In this document: positions 37,201 through 64,000 of the stretch, one piece after another
Position numbering within the stretch: position 1 is the first letter of the stretch
Layout: the number at the start of each line of letters is the position of its first letter
Origin: a virus
Reading direction: 5' to 3' (one strand)
Length of the DNA: 64,000 nt
IMG/VR virus record: IMGVR_UViG_3300029951_000007
Program-made: the position numbers and the translations under genes
Notes under the pieces: model-generated
The model's input: the letters and a program-made list of their open reading frames with translations, nothing else
What the model was told of the DNA's origin: nothing
The model's database searches: none

Positions 37201-37553
37201 GCTTGAAAAGCGTGCGGTACTGCGACGAATGCGGAGCGGCCAAGACCATCGCCAACCATTGGTGGGCCGTCTCCAACACGGCGGAAGCGCCTCTGTTCAT
37301 GACCTCCAAGAGCGCCGACAAGCTGCTGCACAAGGACGCGTTCCGGCTGGATTACTGCAGCTACACCTGCGTCGGCACGGTGTTCAACCGCTGGCTGGAC
37401 ACTGGCTCCGTCGTCAAGAAGAAGCCGCGCCCGATCAAGGCGGTGGCCGTTGCCAAGGCGATAGAACCCGAACTCGACGAGACAGAGGAAGAGTACGCTC
37501 GGTTGCTTACACCGTCAGAGGTAGAAAAGGAAGCGTATGCAGCTGTTTATTGA
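37197..37553 (+). CDS. hypothetical zinc-ribbon protein
   Basis: ATGA overlap; YCDECG...CSYTC. Confidence 0.5.
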   Translation: MSLKSVRYCDECGAAKTIANHWWAVSNTAEAPLFMTSKSADKLLHKDAFRLDYCSYTCVGTVFNRWLDTGSVVKKKPRPIKAVAVAKAIEPELDETEEEYARLLTPSEVEKEAYAAVY

Positions 37554-38007
37554 TTGTGACGGTGTGTTAGCGGACTTCGATCAATACTTCATCGACCACT
37601 ACGGACGACATCCGACACTGGTGGAGGAAGAGCACGGCAGTAAACGACTGTGGCAAGATCTGCAGGACCATGAAGATTACTACTTCAAGCTGCCGCTCAT
37701 GCCGGACGCCATGGAGCTGTACGATAGCGTCAAGCATCTGAATCCGATCATTCTGACTGGAAGACCAGCAAGCGGACTATGGGCCGTGGATCAAAAGATT
37801 CGTTGGACGGCCAAGCATTTTCCAGGCGTACCGACCATCGTCTGTCTATCGCGTGACAAGTGCCATCACATGACCGCGCCTGGAGACATACTCGTGGATG
37901 ATCGGGTGAAGTACGCACCATTTTGGACTGACGCTGGCGGAGTGTTCGTTCATCACAAGTCGGCGGAAGCGACGATTGTTACACTAGAGAGGCTGGGTTT
38001 GCTGTGA
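37537..38007 (+). CDS. 5'(3')-deoxyribonucleotidase (HAD family)
   Basis: The N-terminal FIDCDGVLADF matches HAD motif I (DxDGV) as in the NT5C family. ILTGR and VDD motifs are also present. Confidence 0.7.
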   Translation: MQLFIDCDGVLADFDQYFIDHYGRHPTLVEEEHGSKRLWQDLQDHEDYYFKLPLMPDAMELYDSVKHLNPIILTGRPASGLWAVDQKIRWTAKHFPGVPTIVCLSRDKCHHMTAPGDILVDDRVKYAPFWTDAGGVFVHHKSAEATIVTLERLGLL

Positions 38008-57625: not shown

Positions 57626-57781
57626 ATGCCACAGTCCATGCAACAGAAGCGCAAGAACTCCCTCGAACTTCTCAAGTCAGCACTCATCAGCCGCATCGCG
57701 CAGGAAGAGTTCAAGAAGGCTGAGAACCTCGCCCGCATGATCCAGTTCACCGAAGCCGCCATCGCGAAGGGTGGACGCTAA
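57626..57781 (+). CDS. hypothetical 51-aa helical protein
   Basis: Own translation MPQSMQQKRKNSLELLKSALISRIAQEEFKKAEN... with a TAAGGAGAA RBS. Confidence 0.4.
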   Translation: MPQSMQQKRKNSLELLKSALISRIAQEEFKKAENLARMIQFTEAAIAKGGR

Positions 57782-57782
57782 C

Positions 57783-59342
57783 ATGGCAAAGTCAATCCTG
57801 AAGAACATCAAGGCAGCACCGAGCGCGAAAGCTGTCAAGGCTGTTGGCAAGAAGTTGATCAAGACGGCTAAGGGCGAAACAGTCGTAGCCACGCACGACA
57901 TCCACAATAAGTCGCTCGCTCCCACCGCGCCCGTAACGCCGCTGACTCAGGCGTTCGTCAAGGCCGGATTCGTATACAGCCGCACTGAGGAGGTAGATAA
58001 CAATACCGCTCATGGCTATACACGCGAAGACGGTGCGGCGCTTCTATTCACGCACGCTGGCAGTTCGTCCAGCATCAACACCGCGTGGCAGGTGAAGTTT
58101 GCGGACGGCTCCACGGCTGAAGGCAAGAACGCTCAGCAATTCGTAAAGACCATGTACGACGCTAAGGGACCGGCTCCGTTACCTAGCAACGTCGTGGCCG
58201 CGCTGGACGCGCTACGTAAGCTGACGGCTGGCAAGTATCGCATCAGCGATCTGGCTGGCGACGCCAACTACAAGGCGCGCGTGCAGCTTCTGAAGCTGCT
58301 ACGTAAGACTGACAAGGTACTGGTCAAGGAGAGCGGCGTCAACAAAGTGCTGACCGAGTTCTACGTCGCGCTCGGCATCGCGAAGTCGTCCGTGGCCGGT
58401 ATGGAGTCGGCATTCAGCGCGAAGTGCATGGAGCTCGCGAAGAGTGCCAGCAAGACGGAGCGCGCGGTAGCGAAGGTAGAGAAGGCTGTAATCGCTGACG
58501 AGCTTCGGAAGACGGTACACACCCGCGTCGTATTCGATGGCAAGCCGATCCTGGACGCGCCCAAGAAGATGAACAAGAAGCAAGAAGCCAAGGACAGCGC
58601 CGATTTCAAGCTGGAACTGGCGGCACGAGTCAAGCGTGCGGAGCGCGAAACGGCGAACATGCCAATGGCGCAGCCGAAGTCGGATGCTGATATCTACGTC
58701 AACCTGGACGAGATATTCCTGCTGGAAGATCCCAATAATGGTATCGTTTTGCTACAGTTGGAAAAACCCAATTCGCAGGGCGCGATTTGCGTGTATAATA
58801 ACGGGAGTCGCGTTGCTGCCGGAGTAGTACCGACAGAAGTTCTGAGAACACTGCGTCAGATCACAAGTAGCGATCTAGTGAGAGACGTAAATCAGTTACT
58901 ACACCCCATTACGGCTGGAGTTGTAGTTTCGTCCGTGGCTGAACGCCACCTTACAGCGGTGTTAGATCACTGCAAGGAGAACATCATGACCACTGCAACC
59001 GTTGAAACCAAGAAGCAGAAATTCGCACCTCCCGCTGGAACAGCCAAGAAGACCGCGAAGAACGCTGTCACGACCAAGGTCAAGGCAACCGTAACCAAGA
59101 AGGCCGACAAGGCACCGCGCGCCGCAGCCGCCGATCGCAAGATCAAGGCGTTAGTAACGTTGAAGTCGGAGTCGTTGCCCCGCGAAGGCAGCTTCTGCTA
59201 CGGTCAAGTTGAGGCCATCATCGGCTCCAAGACCGTGAGCGAGGCTCAGGCCAAGCTGGACAAGTCCAAGCTGAATCCCAGCGGTCGCAAGCTGGAAGTG
59301 GCGTGGCTGGTGAAGCAGGGCTACCTGTCCGTCATCGAGTAG
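57783..59342 (+). CDS. hypothetical 519-aa protein with Lys-rich (histone-H1-like) segment
   Basis: ATG at 57783. KKTAKNAVTTKVKATVTKKADKAPRAAAADRK is a basic low-complexity region. Confidence 0.6.
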   Translation: MAKSILKNIKAAPSAKAVKAVGKKLIKTAKGETVVATHDIHNKSLAPTAPVTPLTQAFVKAGFVYSRTEEVDNNTAHGYTREDGAALLFTHAGSSSSINTAWQVKFADGSTAEGKNAQQFVKTMYDAKGPAPLPSNVVAALDALRKLTAGKYRISDLAGDANYKARVQLLKLLRKTDKVLVKESGVNKVLTEFYVALGIAKSSVAGMESAFSAKCMELAKSASKTERAVAKVEKAVIADELRKTVHTRVVFDGKPILDAPKKMNKKQEAKDSADFKLELAARVKRAERETANMPMAQPKSDADIYVNLDEIFLLEDPNNGIVLLQLEKPNSQGAICVYNNGSRVAAGVVPTEVLRTLRQITSSDLVRDVNQLLHPITAGVVVSSVAERHLTAVLDHCKENIMTTATVETKKQKFAPPAGTAKKTAKNAVTTKVKATVTKKADKAPRAAAADRKIKALVTLKSESLPREGSFCYGQVEAIIGSKTVSEAQAKLDKSKLNPSGRKLEVAWLVKQGYLSVIE

Positions 59343-59689: not shown

Positions 59690-60613
59690 TTGCCACGTAA
59701 GAGGAGAACGATCCTGAAAAACCTAACACTCATCATCCCCACGCACGGTCGTGTTAACAAGCAGATAACGCTCCAGGCGCTGCCGACTGCGCTCCAGGCC
59801 GAGGTCATCCTCGTGGCTTCGTTGCCTGACGAAGCCAAGGCGCTGAAGAAGCTGTACCCGGCTAACCAAGTGCTTACAGCCAAGGGCACTACATCCATCG
59901 CTACGAAGCGTCACTGGATTATGAAGAACGTAGCCGGCAAGTTTCTATTTATGATGGACGACGACCTGGCGTTCTTCGAGCGCTGCCCGGCTAAGTGGCG
60001 CGTGTGGGAGGAGCATCGCAAGGCGTACGCCGTAGCTCCGGACGCACCGGCTGGAACCTCGCTGATGATGCGTCGCTATCCTAAGGACAAGGTCCTCTTG
60101 AAGCTATTCCAGGAGATGGATTCCTACGCTGGTAAAGAGCACGACCTCGGTATGATCGGCATCGCGCATCGGCGTCACTCTGACAAGAAGAAAGCGGCGT
60201 GGGAGAAGAACGCAAGGATGATGTATGCTTTCGGTGTCAACCGAGAGCTCTATCTCAAAGAGAAGATTCGCTTCGACGCCATAGGTCTGCGCGAGGACTT
60301 CCACGTGGTGTTGTCCATGTTGCGTAAAGGCCATGAGTGCCACAACTACGTCGAGCTACTCAACAACGAGTACGGCACATTCGGCGCGGCGGGAGGGTGC
60401 AGCGGCGAGCGCAGTATGGAGTACAGCGACGCCCAGTGCTTCGAGTTGGCCAAGCTACACCCCGGCTTCGTGAAGGTGGTGGACCGCGCGTACACCACGA
60501 CGGCTGTGCGTAAGGAGGTCGTGGTAGCCTGGAAGAAGGCTTACCTCTCCTCTCTGGCTCAGCCCAAGGTTCCAAGCGTACGGAAGGCAGCAAAGAAAGC
60601 GGTGACGGCATGA
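59690..60613 (+). CDS. GT-A fold (GT2-like) glycosyl/phospho-group transferase
   Basis: LTLIIPTHGR is a typical GT-A N-terminal strand and FLFMMDDDLAFF a DxD motif. The start codon is uncertain: the track uses the TTG at 59690, and a GAGGAGA RBS precedes a CTG at ~59715. Confidence 0.6.
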   Translation: MPRKRRTILKNLTLIIPTHGRVNKQITLQALPTALQAEVILVASLPDEAKALKKLYPANQVLTAKGTTSIATKRHWIMKNVAGKFLFMMDDDLAFFERCPAKWRVWEEHRKAYAVAPDAPAGTSLMMRRYPKDKVLLKLFQEMDSYAGKEHDLGMIGIAHRRHSDKKKAAWEKNARMMYAFGVNRELYLKEKIRFDAIGLREDFHVVLSMLRKGHECHNYVELLNNEYGTFGAAGGCSGERSMEYSDAQCFELAKLHPGFVKVVDRAYTTTAVRKEVVVAWKKAYLSSLAQPKVPSVRKAAKKAVTA

Positions 60614-60777
60614 AGTGCGAAAATTGCAAGAAGAAGTGTGCGAATCGGTTCTGTAACCTTGGCTGCTTCAACCGGTGGGTGCGGCGTGGTAATCGCAAAC
60701 TGGTGGAGGACGCGCACAAGAGCGGCACGGAGGATTACCGCGTCGTCGTACGGAAGATGATGGGAGGCACGGCGTGA
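60610..60777 (+). CDS. 55-aa zinc-ribbon protein
   Basis: Own translation MKCENCKKKCANRFCNLGCFNRWVRRG.... An ATGA overlap lies upstream and a GTGA overlap downstream. Confidence 0.4.
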   Translation: MKCENCKKKCANRFCNLGCFNRWVRRGNRKLVEDAHKSGTEDYRVVVRKMMGGTA

Positions 60778-61511
60778 TCATTCACCACAAGATTCAGCGC
60801 AACAGCGGAGCAGCCCTAGAGCCGTGTATCTATAAGAGTGGCCATGGTGTGCCGACGCAAGGCGCTAAGATGCGCGCCTATCCGGACGTATTTGTGCCGG
60901 TGCTAGGTATAACGACTGGCGGCTACGTCATGCCGGTAATGGGCGAACCATCGCCGGTACTGGACCTGCCGTTGGCGCTGGCCCGGTTGGCTGCTTTATG
61001 GGACCTGCCGGTGGCGCATGTCTACGATTATGAGGGCCGCCGTCGCCACCACGTAGTCCAAGTAGAGCCGTTCACTCGCACAGAAGGCTTTCCGCCTATT
61101 ATCCGGTCGGCGCTGACGACGTGGTACGAACGAATTGGTAGTACGCAAAGCAAAGGAGCACAGGTCGTACATGGTGATCCCACCCTGGAGAACTACGTAC
61201 GCGACGGTTATTGGCTAGACCCTAGTACGCGTCCATTGCCACAAGAGGCCGAGCTTGACGGCGGCAAGCTGCTGCAGTCGTACTTCCACTACGGTCGCCC
61301 TTGCCTGGAGTCGGAACGTTACATGATACGTAAGTTCTTGGTCGAGCAAAAATTGAACCTGGACCTCTGTATCTACTACATGCTGACGCACATCATTCGG
61401 CTGTATGGTGTGCAGCCGCAGGCGCGTGTATGGGCCATTGACGTCGTATCGGGCCTGCGTAATTTGGCGGAAGAACTTCGCACGGAAATGAGAGTGGATG
61501 CATGCAAGTAG
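60774..61511 (+). CDS. protein-kinase-like fold small-molecule kinase (APH / choline-kinase-like)
   Basis: VVHGDPTLENYV is the catalytic-loop HGDxxxxN and YWLDPS the metal-binding D. Confidence 0.6.
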   Translation: MIIHHKIQRNSGAALEPCIYKSGHGVPTQGAKMRAYPDVFVPVLGITTGGYVMPVMGEPSPVLDLPLALARLAALWDLPVAHVYDYEGRRRHHVVQVEPFTRTEGFPPIIRSALTTWYERIGSTQSKGAQVVHGDPTLENYVRDGYWLDPSTRPLPQEAELDGGKLLQSYFHYGRPCLESERYMIRKFLVEQKLNLDLCIYYMLTHIIRLYGVQPQARVWAIDVVSGLRNLAEELRTEMRVDACK

Positions 61512-62221
61512 TTATTCTGGCGGCAGGACGCGGTGAACGATTTGTCAGTAACGGGGTAATGACGCCTAAACCGCTGCTCCCAGCGCGCGGTCGCACGATG
61601 ATACAGCATGCGCTGGTCCAGGCGTCTGAAATCATCAAGACGCCTGTCGTTGTGTGCTTGGTGGATTTGTACAGTGAGCTTCACAAGCAAACGCCGAAGA
61701 ACATGCATCCGATCCGCGTGCCCATTCGGTTCGTGCAGAAGGGTGCGGCCATGTCTTTGTTGGCGGCGTCAGGTGTGATTCGCGATACCGATCCGGTGCT
61801 GGTCATGGACTGTGACACCATCTTCAAGAGTGGTGTGCTTGCTAAGTTCTCTGAGTTTAGTGAGGCTTGCTTCAAGTCTGGCGTGCAGTCTTCTATGCTG
61901 TGCTTCCGTCCTAAGGATGACAGCGAGCGCTACAGTTTCGTTATCATGAAGGATCACTTAGTGACGCAGGTGGTGGAGAAGCAGCGCATAAGCGGTATTG
62001 CTTCTTGCGGCGTTCATGCATTCCAGTCGTGGGAGCTTGCCAAGCGCGCCATCTACGAGATGGTGATTCTCAGTACGATGACTAACGGTGAGTACTATCT
62101 GGCACCGTGCCACAACAATTTGCAGTTGACCACGGCCATGGTGATCGCAGCCGATGAATTCAACCACGTAGGCACACCGGCTGAACTGGAGGCGTATGAG
62201 CAAGCAGTTCCCAAGGCTTGA
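61502..62221 (+). CDS. sugar-/alcohol-phosphate nucleotidyltransferase
   Basis: MQVVILAAGRGERF (LAAGxGxR), PKPLLP and an LVMDCD acidic motif. Size and pattern resemble the RmlA/GlmU-N/LicC class. Confidence 0.75.
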   Translation: MQVVILAAGRGERFVSNGVMTPKPLLPARGRTMIQHALVQASEIIKTPVVVCLVDLYSELHKQTPKNMHPIRVPIRFVQKGAAMSLLAASGVIRDTDPVLVMDCDTIFKSGVLAKFSEFSEACFKSGVQSSMLCFRPKDDSERYSFVIMKDHLVTQVVEKQRISGIASCGVHAFQSWELAKRAIYEMVILSTMTNGEYYLAPCHNNLQLTTAMVIAADEFNHVGTPAELEAYEQAVPKA

Positions 62222-63068
62222 AGAGTTCGTGTACTTCGTGAACGAGCGTTGGTCCATACATCAGAAGCGATTGGCTGGGAAGCCTGCTCCGTGGACGAAG
62301 GATCCTATCCTGTTGGAATACCGCTTTACCAACGTACGTCGCGAAGACGACAGGGTCACTAAGTGTATACACGAAAACTGGTTACAGCCGCACGCGGAGG
62401 ACTACGACACGGTAGTCTTCGCAATGGCGCTGGCACGGTTGGTGAACTTGCCGGCGAGCCTGGAAGCGCTCGGTTATCCATCAAAATGGAATCCGAAGCG
62501 GTTTGTGAAGCTGATGGAGGCGCGCAAGAAGGACGGCATGGCGACGTTCACAGGGGCATACATGATAAACGCCGTCGGTGCTACCAAAGGACAGTCCAAG
62601 GCGTCGTACTTGGCCGACCAGGTGCTTGGGCCGTTGTGGAACAGCCGTAAGCTGCTAGGTAACTTGGTGCGTACCGGGTGTGAGCTTAGTACGTTGCAAG
62701 AAGCGCTCATGTTACATCACGGCTTCGGAGGTGGGTTCATGAGTGCGCAGGTCGTGGCGGATATTAAGCACCTGCCTTCTATGAAGAAGGCTGAAGACTG
62801 GATGACGTTCGCAATGTCAGGGCCAGGAAGTCGTAGAGGGTTAAACTGGCTCGTGGGAAGAGAACCAACTGCGCGCTGGAACGAAGAGGAATGGCATGCT
62901 ACGCTGCTGGATTTGATGAAGGTAGCTCAGCCAAAGTTGAAATGCCCAGTGTTGGATGCGCAGAATCTACAGAACTGTCTGTGTGAATTCAGCAAATACT
63001 GCAAGGTGAAGTACAACGGCGGCAGAGCGAAGCAGAAGTTCCGCGCCAGCGGCGAAGCTTATAATTAA
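62196..63068 (+). CDS. aGPT-Pplase-like / 5-hmdU-DNA-kinase-associated helical domain protein (DNA base hypermodification family)
   Basis: NERWSIHQKRLAGKPAPWTKDPILLEYRFTNVRREDDRVT matches my memory of the PWT.DPIL..YRF.NV.RE.D..T signature of that family. The protein looks all-alpha and is 290 aa. Confidence 0.55.
   Translation: MSKQFPRLEEFVYFVNERWSIHQKRLAGKPAPWTKDPILLEYRFTNVRREDDRVTKCIHENWLQPHAEDYDTVVFAMALARLVNLPASLEALGYPSKWNPKRFVKLMEARKKDGMATFTGAYMINAVGATKGQSKASYLADQVLGPLWNSRKLLGNLVRTGCELSTLQEALMLHHGFGGGFMSAQVVADIKHLPSMKKAEDWMTFAMSGPGSRRGLNWLVGREPTARWNEEEWHATLLDLMKVAQPKLKCPVLDAQNLQNCLCEFSKYCKVKYNGGRAKQKFRASGEAYN
63060..63065 (+). promoter_or_regulatory. TATAAT box, recurrent motif
   Basis: AAGCTTATAATTAACCC overlaps the stop of 62196..63068, 28 nt before the ATG at 63094. 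Confidence 0.4.
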
Positions 63069-63093
63069 CCCATAGCAGCGAAAGGAAGTGAAG

Positions 63094-64000
63094 ATGTACA
63101 GTTACAAAGCTAGAGACGTAAATGAGGCGCTTTCACTTGGACTACAGCATTTGTTACACAGTGGAATCAAAGAGGACTCCAGAGTAGGTCCAGTGCTAGT
63201 AGCGCCAGGGCCGGTGTGTATCGAGTATACCGACCCAAGGCAGCGAGTGCTGTATTCACCAACGCGCGATGCGAACCACGTATTCCATGTGATGGAGGCG
63301 TTGTGGTTTTTCTCGGGGAGCAACGAACTGGAGTTTCCGGTTTTCTTTAATGCCTCATACTCGCAGTTTTCAGATGATGGCAAGACTATGTGGGACTCTT
63401 ACGGATGGCGCTGGCGAGAATTCTTCGGCTATGACCAGCTCGATGCCATAGTGGAGGAGCTCAAGTCGAATCCGGGAAGCAGGCGCTGCGTATTGGCGAT
63501 GTGGAACGCTGATATTGCGCCAAGCGCCCCGCAATGGGAGGCGAAAAGTGGCGTACAGTACAGCGATGATCTTGGCGTTGCGTGCAACGGTGGTAAAGCC
63601 GTTCCGTGCAACACGCACGCTTACTTCGCCATACGAGCCGGCAAGCTGAACATGACCGTCATGAACCGCAGCAACGACAGTATGTGGGGCGCATTCGGCG
63701 CGAACGCGGTCCACTTCAGCTTCCTGTTGGAGTACATGGCGATGCGTATCGGTGTGCCGATGGGCAGTTACTATCAGTTCACGAACAATCTGCATACGTA
63801 TACCGACAAGTTCAGTATTGACAAGCTGAACGCCATTGAATACGAGTGCGTTACGCTCGATCAGTTGGAACCTCTTGGACCCTCTATCACAGAAGGATTC
63901 GACGACGACCTGAAGCTGTTCATGCCGTGGGCGCTGAAGGTGATACGTGCCACCCCACCGCCGGCAACGTTCCCGTCAGACGTATTACCAGAAGCTACGC
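63094..64000 (+). CDS. divergent thymidylate-synthase (ThyA)-fold enzyme, candidate dUMP hydroxymethylase (3' end beyond window)
   Basis: Own translation from the ATG at 63094 stays open to the window end. GSRRCVLAMWN, VPCNTHAYFAIRAGKLNMTVMNRSND, GANAVHFSFLLEYMA and NNLHTY align with ThyA SRRIIVSAWN, PCHAFFQFYV..GKLSCQLYQRSCD, PFNIASYALL and GDTHLY. Confidence 0.75.
   Translation, partial: MYSYKARDVNEALSLGLQHLLHSGIKEDSRVGPVLVAPGPVCIEYTDPRQRVLYSPTRDANHVFHVMEALWFFSGSNELEFPVFFNASYSQFSDDGKTMWDSYGWRWREFFGYDQLDAIVEELKSNPGSRRCVLAMWNADIAPSAPQWEAKSGVQYSDDLGVACNGGKAVPCNTHAYFAIRAGKLNMTVMNRSNDSMWGAFGANAVHFSFLLEYMAMRIGVPMGSYYQFTNNLHTYTDKFSIDKLNAIEYECVTLDQLEPLGPSITEGFDDDLKLFMPWALKVIRATPPPATFPSDVLPEAT

Follow-up and report, generated by a model that had tools for sequence, protein, structure and literature searches.

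The 64,000-nucleotide stretch of the virus record IMGVR_UViG_3300029951_000007 in IMG/VR (hereafter the window, meaning that stretch at its whole length) is a segment of a tailed-phage genome, with genes for a primase-helicase, a DNA ligase, a family A DNA polymerase, an exonuclease and an SNF2 helicase, followed by a modification cluster. The gene at its end codes for a protein with the fold of thymidylate synthase (ThyA), which is very probably, judging from its sequence, a phage deoxyuridine monophosphate (dUMP) hydroxymethyltransferase of the SPO1 gp29/M6/PaMx11/phiRSL1 type. This kind of enzyme is already known, and what is new is a variant of its active site with a putatively relocated aspartate. 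The gene and the features recognised in and just before it are the following:

63060 to 63088, plus strand: TATAAT box (63060-63065) and AGGAAG ribosome-binding site (63083-63088), read from the sequence, with putative functions only
63094 to 64000, plus strand: ThyA-fold gene, predicted dUMP hydroxymethyltransferase (open reading frame call, profile matches, tree, AlphaFold2 model)
63388 to 63402, plus strand: MWDSY; Tyr103 corresponds to ThyA Y94 and to Y96 of the dCMP hydroxymethylase of T4, and Asp101, two residues before it, is the proposed relocated water-activating carboxylate
63475 to 63507, plus strand: GSRRCVLAMWN, amino acids 128-138; Arg130 and Arg131 correspond to the phosphate-binding ThyA R126' and R127'
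63508 to 63597, plus strand: lineage-variable loop insertion, amino acids 139-168 (alignment and model)
63508 to 63600, plus strand: string ADIAPS...GGKA, amino acids 139-169 (exact match)
63598 to 63618, plus strand: AVPCNTH; Ala169, three residues before the catalytic Cys, corresponds to ThyA L143, Cys172 is the catalytic nucleophile, and Asn173 replaces ThyA H147
63601 to 63618, plus strand: VPCNTH, amino acids 170-175 (exact match)
63664 to 63678, plus strand: NRSND, amino acids 191-195; Arg192, Ser193 and Asp195 correspond to ThyA R166, S167 and D169
63697 to 63717, plus strand: GANAVHF, amino acids 202-208; Asn204 corresponds to ThyA N177, the uracil-specifying residue
63784 to 63801, plus strand: NNLHTY, amino acids 231-236; His234 and Tyr236 are the counterparts of ThyA H207 and Y209, the residues that contact the deoxyribose 3'-OH
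63817 to 64000, plus strand: start of the C-terminal helical domain (amino acids 242-363, six helices, AlphaFold2 model), which is cut by the end of the window

The open reading frame starts with ATG at 63094 (a GTG at 63088 is a possible alternative) and is cut by the end of the window after 302 of its 363 codons. An identical full-length protein of 363 amino acids (P0001 in the metagenome protein collection) is present on 43 metagenomic contigs of up to ~102 kb, and the 3' end of the gene, as well as its downstream neighbour, were taken from this protein and from the syntenic contigs L001-L003. The AGGAAG Shine-Dalgarno sequence precedes the ATG by 5 nt, while a perfect TATAAT hexamer is found 28 nt upstream of it, between the ThyA-like gene and the preceding aGPT-Pplase1-like gene, so that the ThyA-like gene may have a promoter of its own. 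All motifs quoted in a preliminary description of the window, which had been made from the sequence alone (VPCNTH, GSRRCVLAMWN, NRSND, GANAVHF and NNLHTY), were found at their exact coordinates. A phmmer alignment to the CMP hydroxymethylase MilA suggested Cys165 (GVAC) as the nucleophile instead of Cys172; we rejected this candidate, because the spacing from Cys172 to the next beta-strand matches ThyA exactly, and because Cys172 is invariant among homologues and position 165 is not.

The profile match, the predicted fold and the invariant catalytic Cys172 place the protein in the thymidylate synthase/dCMP hydroxymethylase superfamily. It matches the Pfam family PF00303 (Thymidylat_synt; E = 3e-18, 66 bits against a cut-off of 24.3) and phrog_5131 (E = 1e-88), and its AlphaFold2 model, built on 64 homologues, has a mean predicted local distance difference test score (pLDDT) of 96.5 and a predicted template modelling score (pTM) of 0.94. 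Structures of thymidylate synthases and of MilA both match this model with a probability of 1.00. The best solved structural match is MilA, with a template modelling (TM) score of 0.84 over 359 columns that include the C-terminal helical domain, whereas thymidylate synthase structures match over only ~250 columns. Sequence identity is 36% with SPO1 gp29 (E = 1e-40), 22% with E. coli ThyA (E = 1e-13) and 48% with the homologues of PaMx11, Ab18 and phiRSL1. The family is very large: clustering at 50% identity gives 1404 clusters for E <= 1e-30 and 3585 for E <= 1e-10.

Six phages, SPO1, SP10, ViI, PhiW-14, M6 and PaMx11, all with 5-hydroxymethyldeoxyuridine (hmdU) or hmdU-derived DNA, provided their single ThyA homologues as references for phylogenetic analysis. 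In an IQ-TREE tree of 62 sequences, the window protein falls inside a 55-row clade that contains all six of them, together with ORF230 of phiRSL1. The stem of this clade measures 2.2 substitutions per site and has a support of 82 in the Shimodaira-Hasegawa-like approximate likelihood ratio test (SH-aLRT). Six thymidylate synthases lie outside (SH-aLRT 88), across a branch of length 1.1 + 2.2 from the hmdU-phage clade. T4 gp42 is very divergent (branch length 10 in this tree) and was left out of the large tree, and its placement in large alignments is unstable: its Asp179 is one column off in one MAFFT alignment and correct in the other.

Concerning the substrate, the position equivalent to ThyA N177 is known to discriminate between the two pyrimidines, an Asn specifying dUMP and an Asp dCMP (PMC8670742; PMC13326640; PMC5175136), which documents the rule on which the preliminary description had relied. 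Its reading of Asn204, aligned by eye, as the residue at this position also holds, since Asn204, and not an Asp, pairs with E. coli ThyA N177 in four independent alignments (BLASTP, phmmer against PDB 6auj, and two MAFFT alignments). The corresponding motif of SPO1 gp29 is GANLCQF, and an Asn occupies the position in 266 of 267 family members, the window protein included. Moreover, Ser193 (ThyA S167) and Arg130 (ThyA R126) are residues of the deoxyribose type; in the ribose-preferring MilA these are replaced by Ala and Lys (PMC5175136). Asp195 (ThyA D169) is also retained, as it is without exception in the 267 family members collected. The replacement of D169 by Asn, together with an Asp at the N177 position, is the signature of 5-hydroxy-dCMP synthases of the RB69 gp48 type (PMC13326640), and the presence of Asp195 therefore excludes the window protein from that type. 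Similarly, Asn204 sets it apart from dCMP hydroxymethylases of the T4 gp42 type (Asp at this position), and Ser193, Arg130 and Asn204 from CMP hydroxymethylases of the MilA/BcmA type (Ala, Lys and Asp).

The sole family member with an Asp at the N177 position is a near homologue of 350 amino acids, P0075, which keeps GGKAVPC and has MWDAY. Its sequence may reflect a switch to dCMP inside the dUMP-hydroxymethylase clade.

Concerning the product, the window protein keeps the ThyA residues C146, E58, Y94, R21, R126/127, R166, S167, D169, N177, H207 and Y209, and differs at W80 (Ser), L143 (Ala), H147 (Asn) and Q165 (Asn); W80 and H147 are lost in all members of the clade. In ThyA, the methylene intermediate is shielded against nucleophiles by W80 and L143 (PMC4342783). 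The short C-terminal lid by which ThyA closes over the folate is also absent, and the tail after Y209 is instead helical and 127 amino acids long (100-157 across the clade, against 55-67 in thymidylate synthases). The protein fails all NCBIfam equivalog cut-offs for thymidylate synthase, the best score being 67.5 bits against 174.6 and the others 19-58 against 108-427. Equivalog score, shielding residues and C-terminus, and grouping in the tree thus all place it outside canonical ThyA (EC 2.1.1.45), whereas Asn204, Ser193/Arg130, clade placement and gene association agree with a dUMP hydroxymethyltransferase of the SPO1 gp29 type (DUHMT). The preference of the preliminary description for 5-hydroxymethyl-dUMP (5-hmdUMP) over dTMP is supported by the tree, the lost ThyA residues and lid, the failed thymidylate synthase cut-offs, the similarity to SPO1 gp29 and the conserved neighbours.

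The preliminary description had however overlooked the residue three positions before the catalytic Cys (Cys-3), which is usually Asp in hydroxymethylases and is Ala here. In T4 dCMP hydroxymethylase this residue is Asp145, which precedes Cys148 by three residues and activates the substrate water; a D145N mutant has no activity (PMC6400193). Ser94, at two residues before Tyr96 (Tyr-2), holds the carboxylate of Asp145, and the trio has been proposed as a signature of hydroxymethylation (PMC6400193); the rule of L143 versus Asp/Glu is restated in a further study (PMC13326640). Consistently, we found an Asp at Cys-3 in all eight reference hydroxymethylases examined, but an Ala (GGKAVPC) in the window protein and in 72 of its 120 nearest homologues. 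This Ala co-varies perfectly with the replacement of Gly by Asp at Tyr-2 (MWDSY, Asp101). Among 275 clade sequences, counted after correction of three intein-bearing ones, the acidic residue lies at Cys-3 in 193 and at Tyr-2 in 82, and no sequence is acidic at both positions or at neither. P0164 and P0234 seemed at first to break this pattern, an artefact that was traced to inteins at their catalytic Cys. In a FastTree tree each of the two positions changes six times, and in every one of the four independent pairs with good support the changes go in opposite directions. Co-variation with Cys-3 and Tyr-2 is also seen at positions 89, 91 and 99 of the second shell. A shift of the water-activating carboxylate to the partner loop is the simplest interpretation, given that Cys-3 and Tyr-2 are in contact in the structure of the T4 enzyme. 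We infer by analogy that Asp101 is this relocated carboxylate, the contact between positions 101 and 169 being taken from the structure paper on the T4 enzyme. We did not find such a relocated-aspartate variant in the literature searched.

The preliminary description had also singled out an insertion of ~35 amino acids before the catalytic Cys. The insertion is real but smaller, as the string listed for it has 31 amino acids and the net gain over ThyA, SPO1 gp29 and M6 is ~19-22. It is in frame, conserved in homologues and confidently folded, so that an intein or a frameshift artefact can be discarded; the model predicts a short beta-hairpin and a helix at 159-164 (together residues 148-164; pLDDT 88-93). 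Within the loop, Asp159 and Gly167 are invariant in the 64 homologues, as are R130 and R131 just before it. From ThyA position 133 to the Cys there are 12 residues in thymidylate synthases, 14 in M6/PaMx11, 15 in SPO1/SP10, 24 in PhiW-14, 25 in ViI, 30 in phiRSL1 and 34 in the window protein, and the number varies between 22 and 48 in the 120 nearest homologues and between 13 and 48 in more distant representatives. Such wide variation points to a lineage-variable loop and not to a hallmark of the window gene; the insertion cannot be upheld as a special feature, given the span of 13-48 across the family, the long loop of phiRSL1 and the inteins of three members.

These three members are distant ThyA-fold hydroxymethylase homologues (P0164, P0234 and P0257) with ~265-296 additional amino acids directly before the catalytic Cys. 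We read these inserts as inteins: they start with Cys-[LF]-[AS]-G-D-T (CLAGDT) and end with His-Asn, and the catalytic Cys would be the +1 extein residue.

The surroundings of the gene, all on the plus strand, comprise the following:

57771 to 59342, plus strand: 523-amino-acid protein with no Pfam or PHROG match
59690 to 60613, plus strand: TAGT-type glycosyltransferase
60774 to 61511, plus strand: 245-amino-acid protein with an HGDPTLEN motif
61502 to 62221, plus strand: nucleotidyltransferase
62196 to 63068, plus strand: aGPT-Pplase clade-1-like protein (Pfam HMUDK_hel), homologue of PaMx11 gp50 and phiRSL1 ORF231
37537 to 38007, plus strand: NT5C-like deoxypyrimidine 5'-nucleotidase of 156 amino acids (PF06941, E = 1e-8)

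The syntenic contigs L001-L005 and PaMx11 share a triad formed by the aGPT-Pplase1-like gene, the ThyA-like gene and, directly downstream of the latter, a gene for an HD-domain 5'-deoxynucleotidase-like protein. Co-occurrence of dUMP hydroxymethylase with thymidine hypermodification genes is documented (PMC5889632; PMC8989533). The glycosyltransferase, the HGDPTLEN protein and the nucleotidyltransferase presumably use the hydroxymethyl group, and the NT5C-like nucleotidase is a candidate for the removal of dTMP. By tblastn, neither the P-loop kinase of 5-hmdU DNA (gp49) nor the dCMP deaminase of the PaMx11 type could be found in the window. The HGDPTLEN protein is the sole kinase-like candidate between 59690 and 64000. 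Counterparts of the 523-amino-acid protein precede the glycosyltransferase at the same place in L001 and L003 (55% and 41% identity, respectively).

In the cultured jumbo phage phiRSL1 (NC_010811, 157473-170150), an analogous region encodes three TAGT-type glycosyltransferases, an APH-kinase-containing protein, a nucleotidyltransferase, a sulfotransferase, the HMUDK_hel protein and then the ThyA homologue. We found no report on the DNA chemistry of phiRSL1 in the literature searched.

The closest cultured relatives are the ThyA homologues (DUHMT) of the Pseudomonas phages M6 and PaMx11 (gp51) and of the Ralstonia phage phiRSL1 (ORF230), which share ~48% identity and the same subclade with the window protein; a relationship of M6-like enzymes to that of phiRSL1 has been described (PMC11946847). 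Common to the window and to these relatives is the upstream aGPT-Pplase1-like gene, with the HD protein downstream in PaMx11. phiRSL1 is further comparable to the window in its 30-residue loop and its neighbouring TAGT glycosyltransferases, kinase and nucleotidyltransferase, whereas M6 and PaMx11 have a 14-residue loop and pathways with a P-loop kinase acting on 5-hmdU in DNA (5-HMUDK) and amino-acid transferases that we did not find in the window. Unlike the window protein, all three have an Asp at Cys-3 (GKDLPC, GKDFPC and SKDLPC, respectively). The gp29 of the Bacillus phage SPO1 and its SP10 counterpart belong to the same clade, share the motifs PCN, NRSND, GAN..F and LH.Y, and have likewise lost W80 and H147. 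They too have a long helical C-terminal extension, although its sequence is unrelated to that of the window protein beyond a general helical character. They differ in their shorter loop before the Cys (15 residues against 34) and in the active-site pair, with Asp at Cys-3 (TKDRPC) and Ala at Tyr-2 in place of Ala and Asp.

T4 gp42 (PDB 1B5E; ternary complex in PMC6400193) resembles the window protein in its fold, its catalytic Cys, Glu and Tyr, the water-activating carboxylate beside the Tyr loop and a reaction that would leave THF as a product in both. However, it has the cytosine-specific Asp at the N177 position and an Asp at Cys-3 with Ser at Tyr-2, and, at 246 amino acids, lacks the C-terminal helical domain. 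MilA (PDB 5JNH / 5B6D), the best structural match, has a multi-helix C-terminal domain with which that of the window protein aligns (PMC5175136), but it is specific for cytosine and ribose (Asp186, Ala176, Lys133), has an Asp at the L143 position, lacks a long loop before the Cys and is only 22% identical. E. coli ThyA and phage thymidylate synthases share the fold, the dUMP-binding arginines, C146, N177, D169, H207 and Y209, but W80, L143, H147, Q165 and the C-terminal lid are replaced in the window protein (22% identity). Our literature searches found no solved structure of a dUMP hydroxymethylase.

On this basis the following course of reaction can be proposed. Cys172 would add to C6 of dUMP, whose uracil face would be read by Asn204, and the one-carbon unit of 5,10-methylene-tetrahydrofolate (THF) would be transferred to C5. 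Removal of the C5 proton with the help of Tyr103 and departure of THF would then leave an exocyclic methylene intermediate. As the solvent-shielding W80, L143 and C-terminal lid are absent, water rather than hydride would add to this intermediate, and the products would be 5-hmdUMP and THF. The water would be activated by a carboxylate, that of the Cys-3 Asp in all characterised hydroxymethylases and that of Asp101 in the subclade of the window protein, where it would sit two residues before Tyr103 on the loop that touches the Cys-3 position. The 5-hmdUMP would be phosphorylated and polymerised into phage DNA in place of thymine, after which the aGPT-Pplase1-like protein, the sugar-activating genes and the glycosyltransferase would act on the hydroxymethyl group. 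Meanwhile, dTMP would probably be depleted by the HD nucleotidase found downstream in relatives and by the NT5C-like nucleotidase of the window.

Several observations weigh against this interpretation. The acidic residue that characterises Cys-3 in DUHMT is replaced by Ala169, so that the published hydroxymethylation signature does not literally apply, and, as D145N abolishes the activity of the T4 enzyme, the assignment depends on Asp101 truly substituting. No characterised enzyme carries the Ala/Asp pair, and the swap represents few independent events (sign test p = 0.125, the minimum reachable with four pairs). Support for the deep branches of the tree is only moderate (SH-aLRT 82-88). Finally, the window lacks a P-loop 5-hmdU DNA kinase, a dCMP deaminase and a dNMP kinase, and ~36 kb of the phage lie outside it. 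The break with the published signature leaves a small residual doubt about the product.

One alternative is an enzyme that would act on dUMP but release something other than 5-hmdUMP, either by C5 hydroxylation or because a nucleophile other than water captures the methylene intermediate, as the altered Cys-3/Tyr-2 pair and the 34-residue loop might allow. The active-site pair, which differs from that of all characterised hydroxymethylases, its co-variation with positions 89, 91 and 99, and the hydroxylase activity unexpectedly found in the thymidylate synthase fold (PMC13326640) speak for this possibility. Yet Asp195 is kept, so that the D169N signature of the hydroxylase is absent, and the constant presence of a carboxylate at one, and never both, of the contacting positions argues for a conserved chemistry. 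Moreover, sisters with the Asp at Cys-3, such as that of phiRSL1, lie in a gene neighbourhood of the same type, and the adjoining glycosyltransferase family is known to act on hydroxymethyl acceptors; we regard such an enzyme as very unlikely. The more specific idea that the whole Ala/Asp subclade, with its loop of ~34 residues over the active-site entrance, delivers the intermediate to a different nucleophile or releases a different 5-substituted dUMP seems to us a long shot.

An ordinary, if divergent, thymidylate synthase that makes dTMP, with neighbouring modification genes that act on something else, would explain the retained fold and nucleotide-binding residues, including the Asn at the N177 position, the Ala at the L143 position in place of the Asp/Glu of proven hydroxymethylases, and the label 'thymidylate synthase' given to homologues in databases. 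It is highly improbable in view of the position of the protein outside the thymidylate synthase clade, its scores of 58-67 bits against equivalog cut-offs of 175-427, and the absence of W80, L143, H147 and the folate-closing C-terminus, of which W80 and L143 shield the methylene intermediate (PMC4342783). Unlike the phage thymidylate synthases compared, the window gene has no dihydrofolate reductase (DHFR) gene seen adjoining it; a deoxynucleotidase follows it in relatives, and its neighbours need a hydroxyl acceptor. Least credible of all is an enzyme of the T4 gp42 or MilA type, hydroxymethylating dCMP or CMP: although MilA is the best PDB match by sequence and by fold, this rank is probably due to its being the only solved structure with a helical C-terminal domain, and the near-universal Asn at the N177 position (266 of 267 members, the window protein among them), with Ser193 and Arg130 of the deoxy type and not the Ala/Lys of MilA (PMC5175136), speaks against it.

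If a dUMP hydroxymethyltransferase is encoded, the window gene is largely an ordinary member of a phage family that is known and very abundant, and its neighbourhood is of a known kind as well. The assignment is in this sense routine, adding one more uncultivated phage that would replace thymine by means of a dUMP hydroxymethylase, and it supports the reading that the adjoining glycosyltransferase genes act on hydroxymethyluracil. Should the intermediate instead go to a different nucleophile, a new pre-replicative modified nucleotide would result, which would be elaborated by the neighbouring glycosylation genes. A by-product of use in annotation and enzymology is that the published Asp/Glu signature at Cys-3 misses ~30% of the dUMP-hydroxymethylase clusters sampled, in which the carboxylate is found at Tyr-2. 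The relocation, if confirmed, would be a clear case in nature of a catalytic residue that has moved from one loop to another in contact with it, and would make the water-activation step directly testable with swap mutants.

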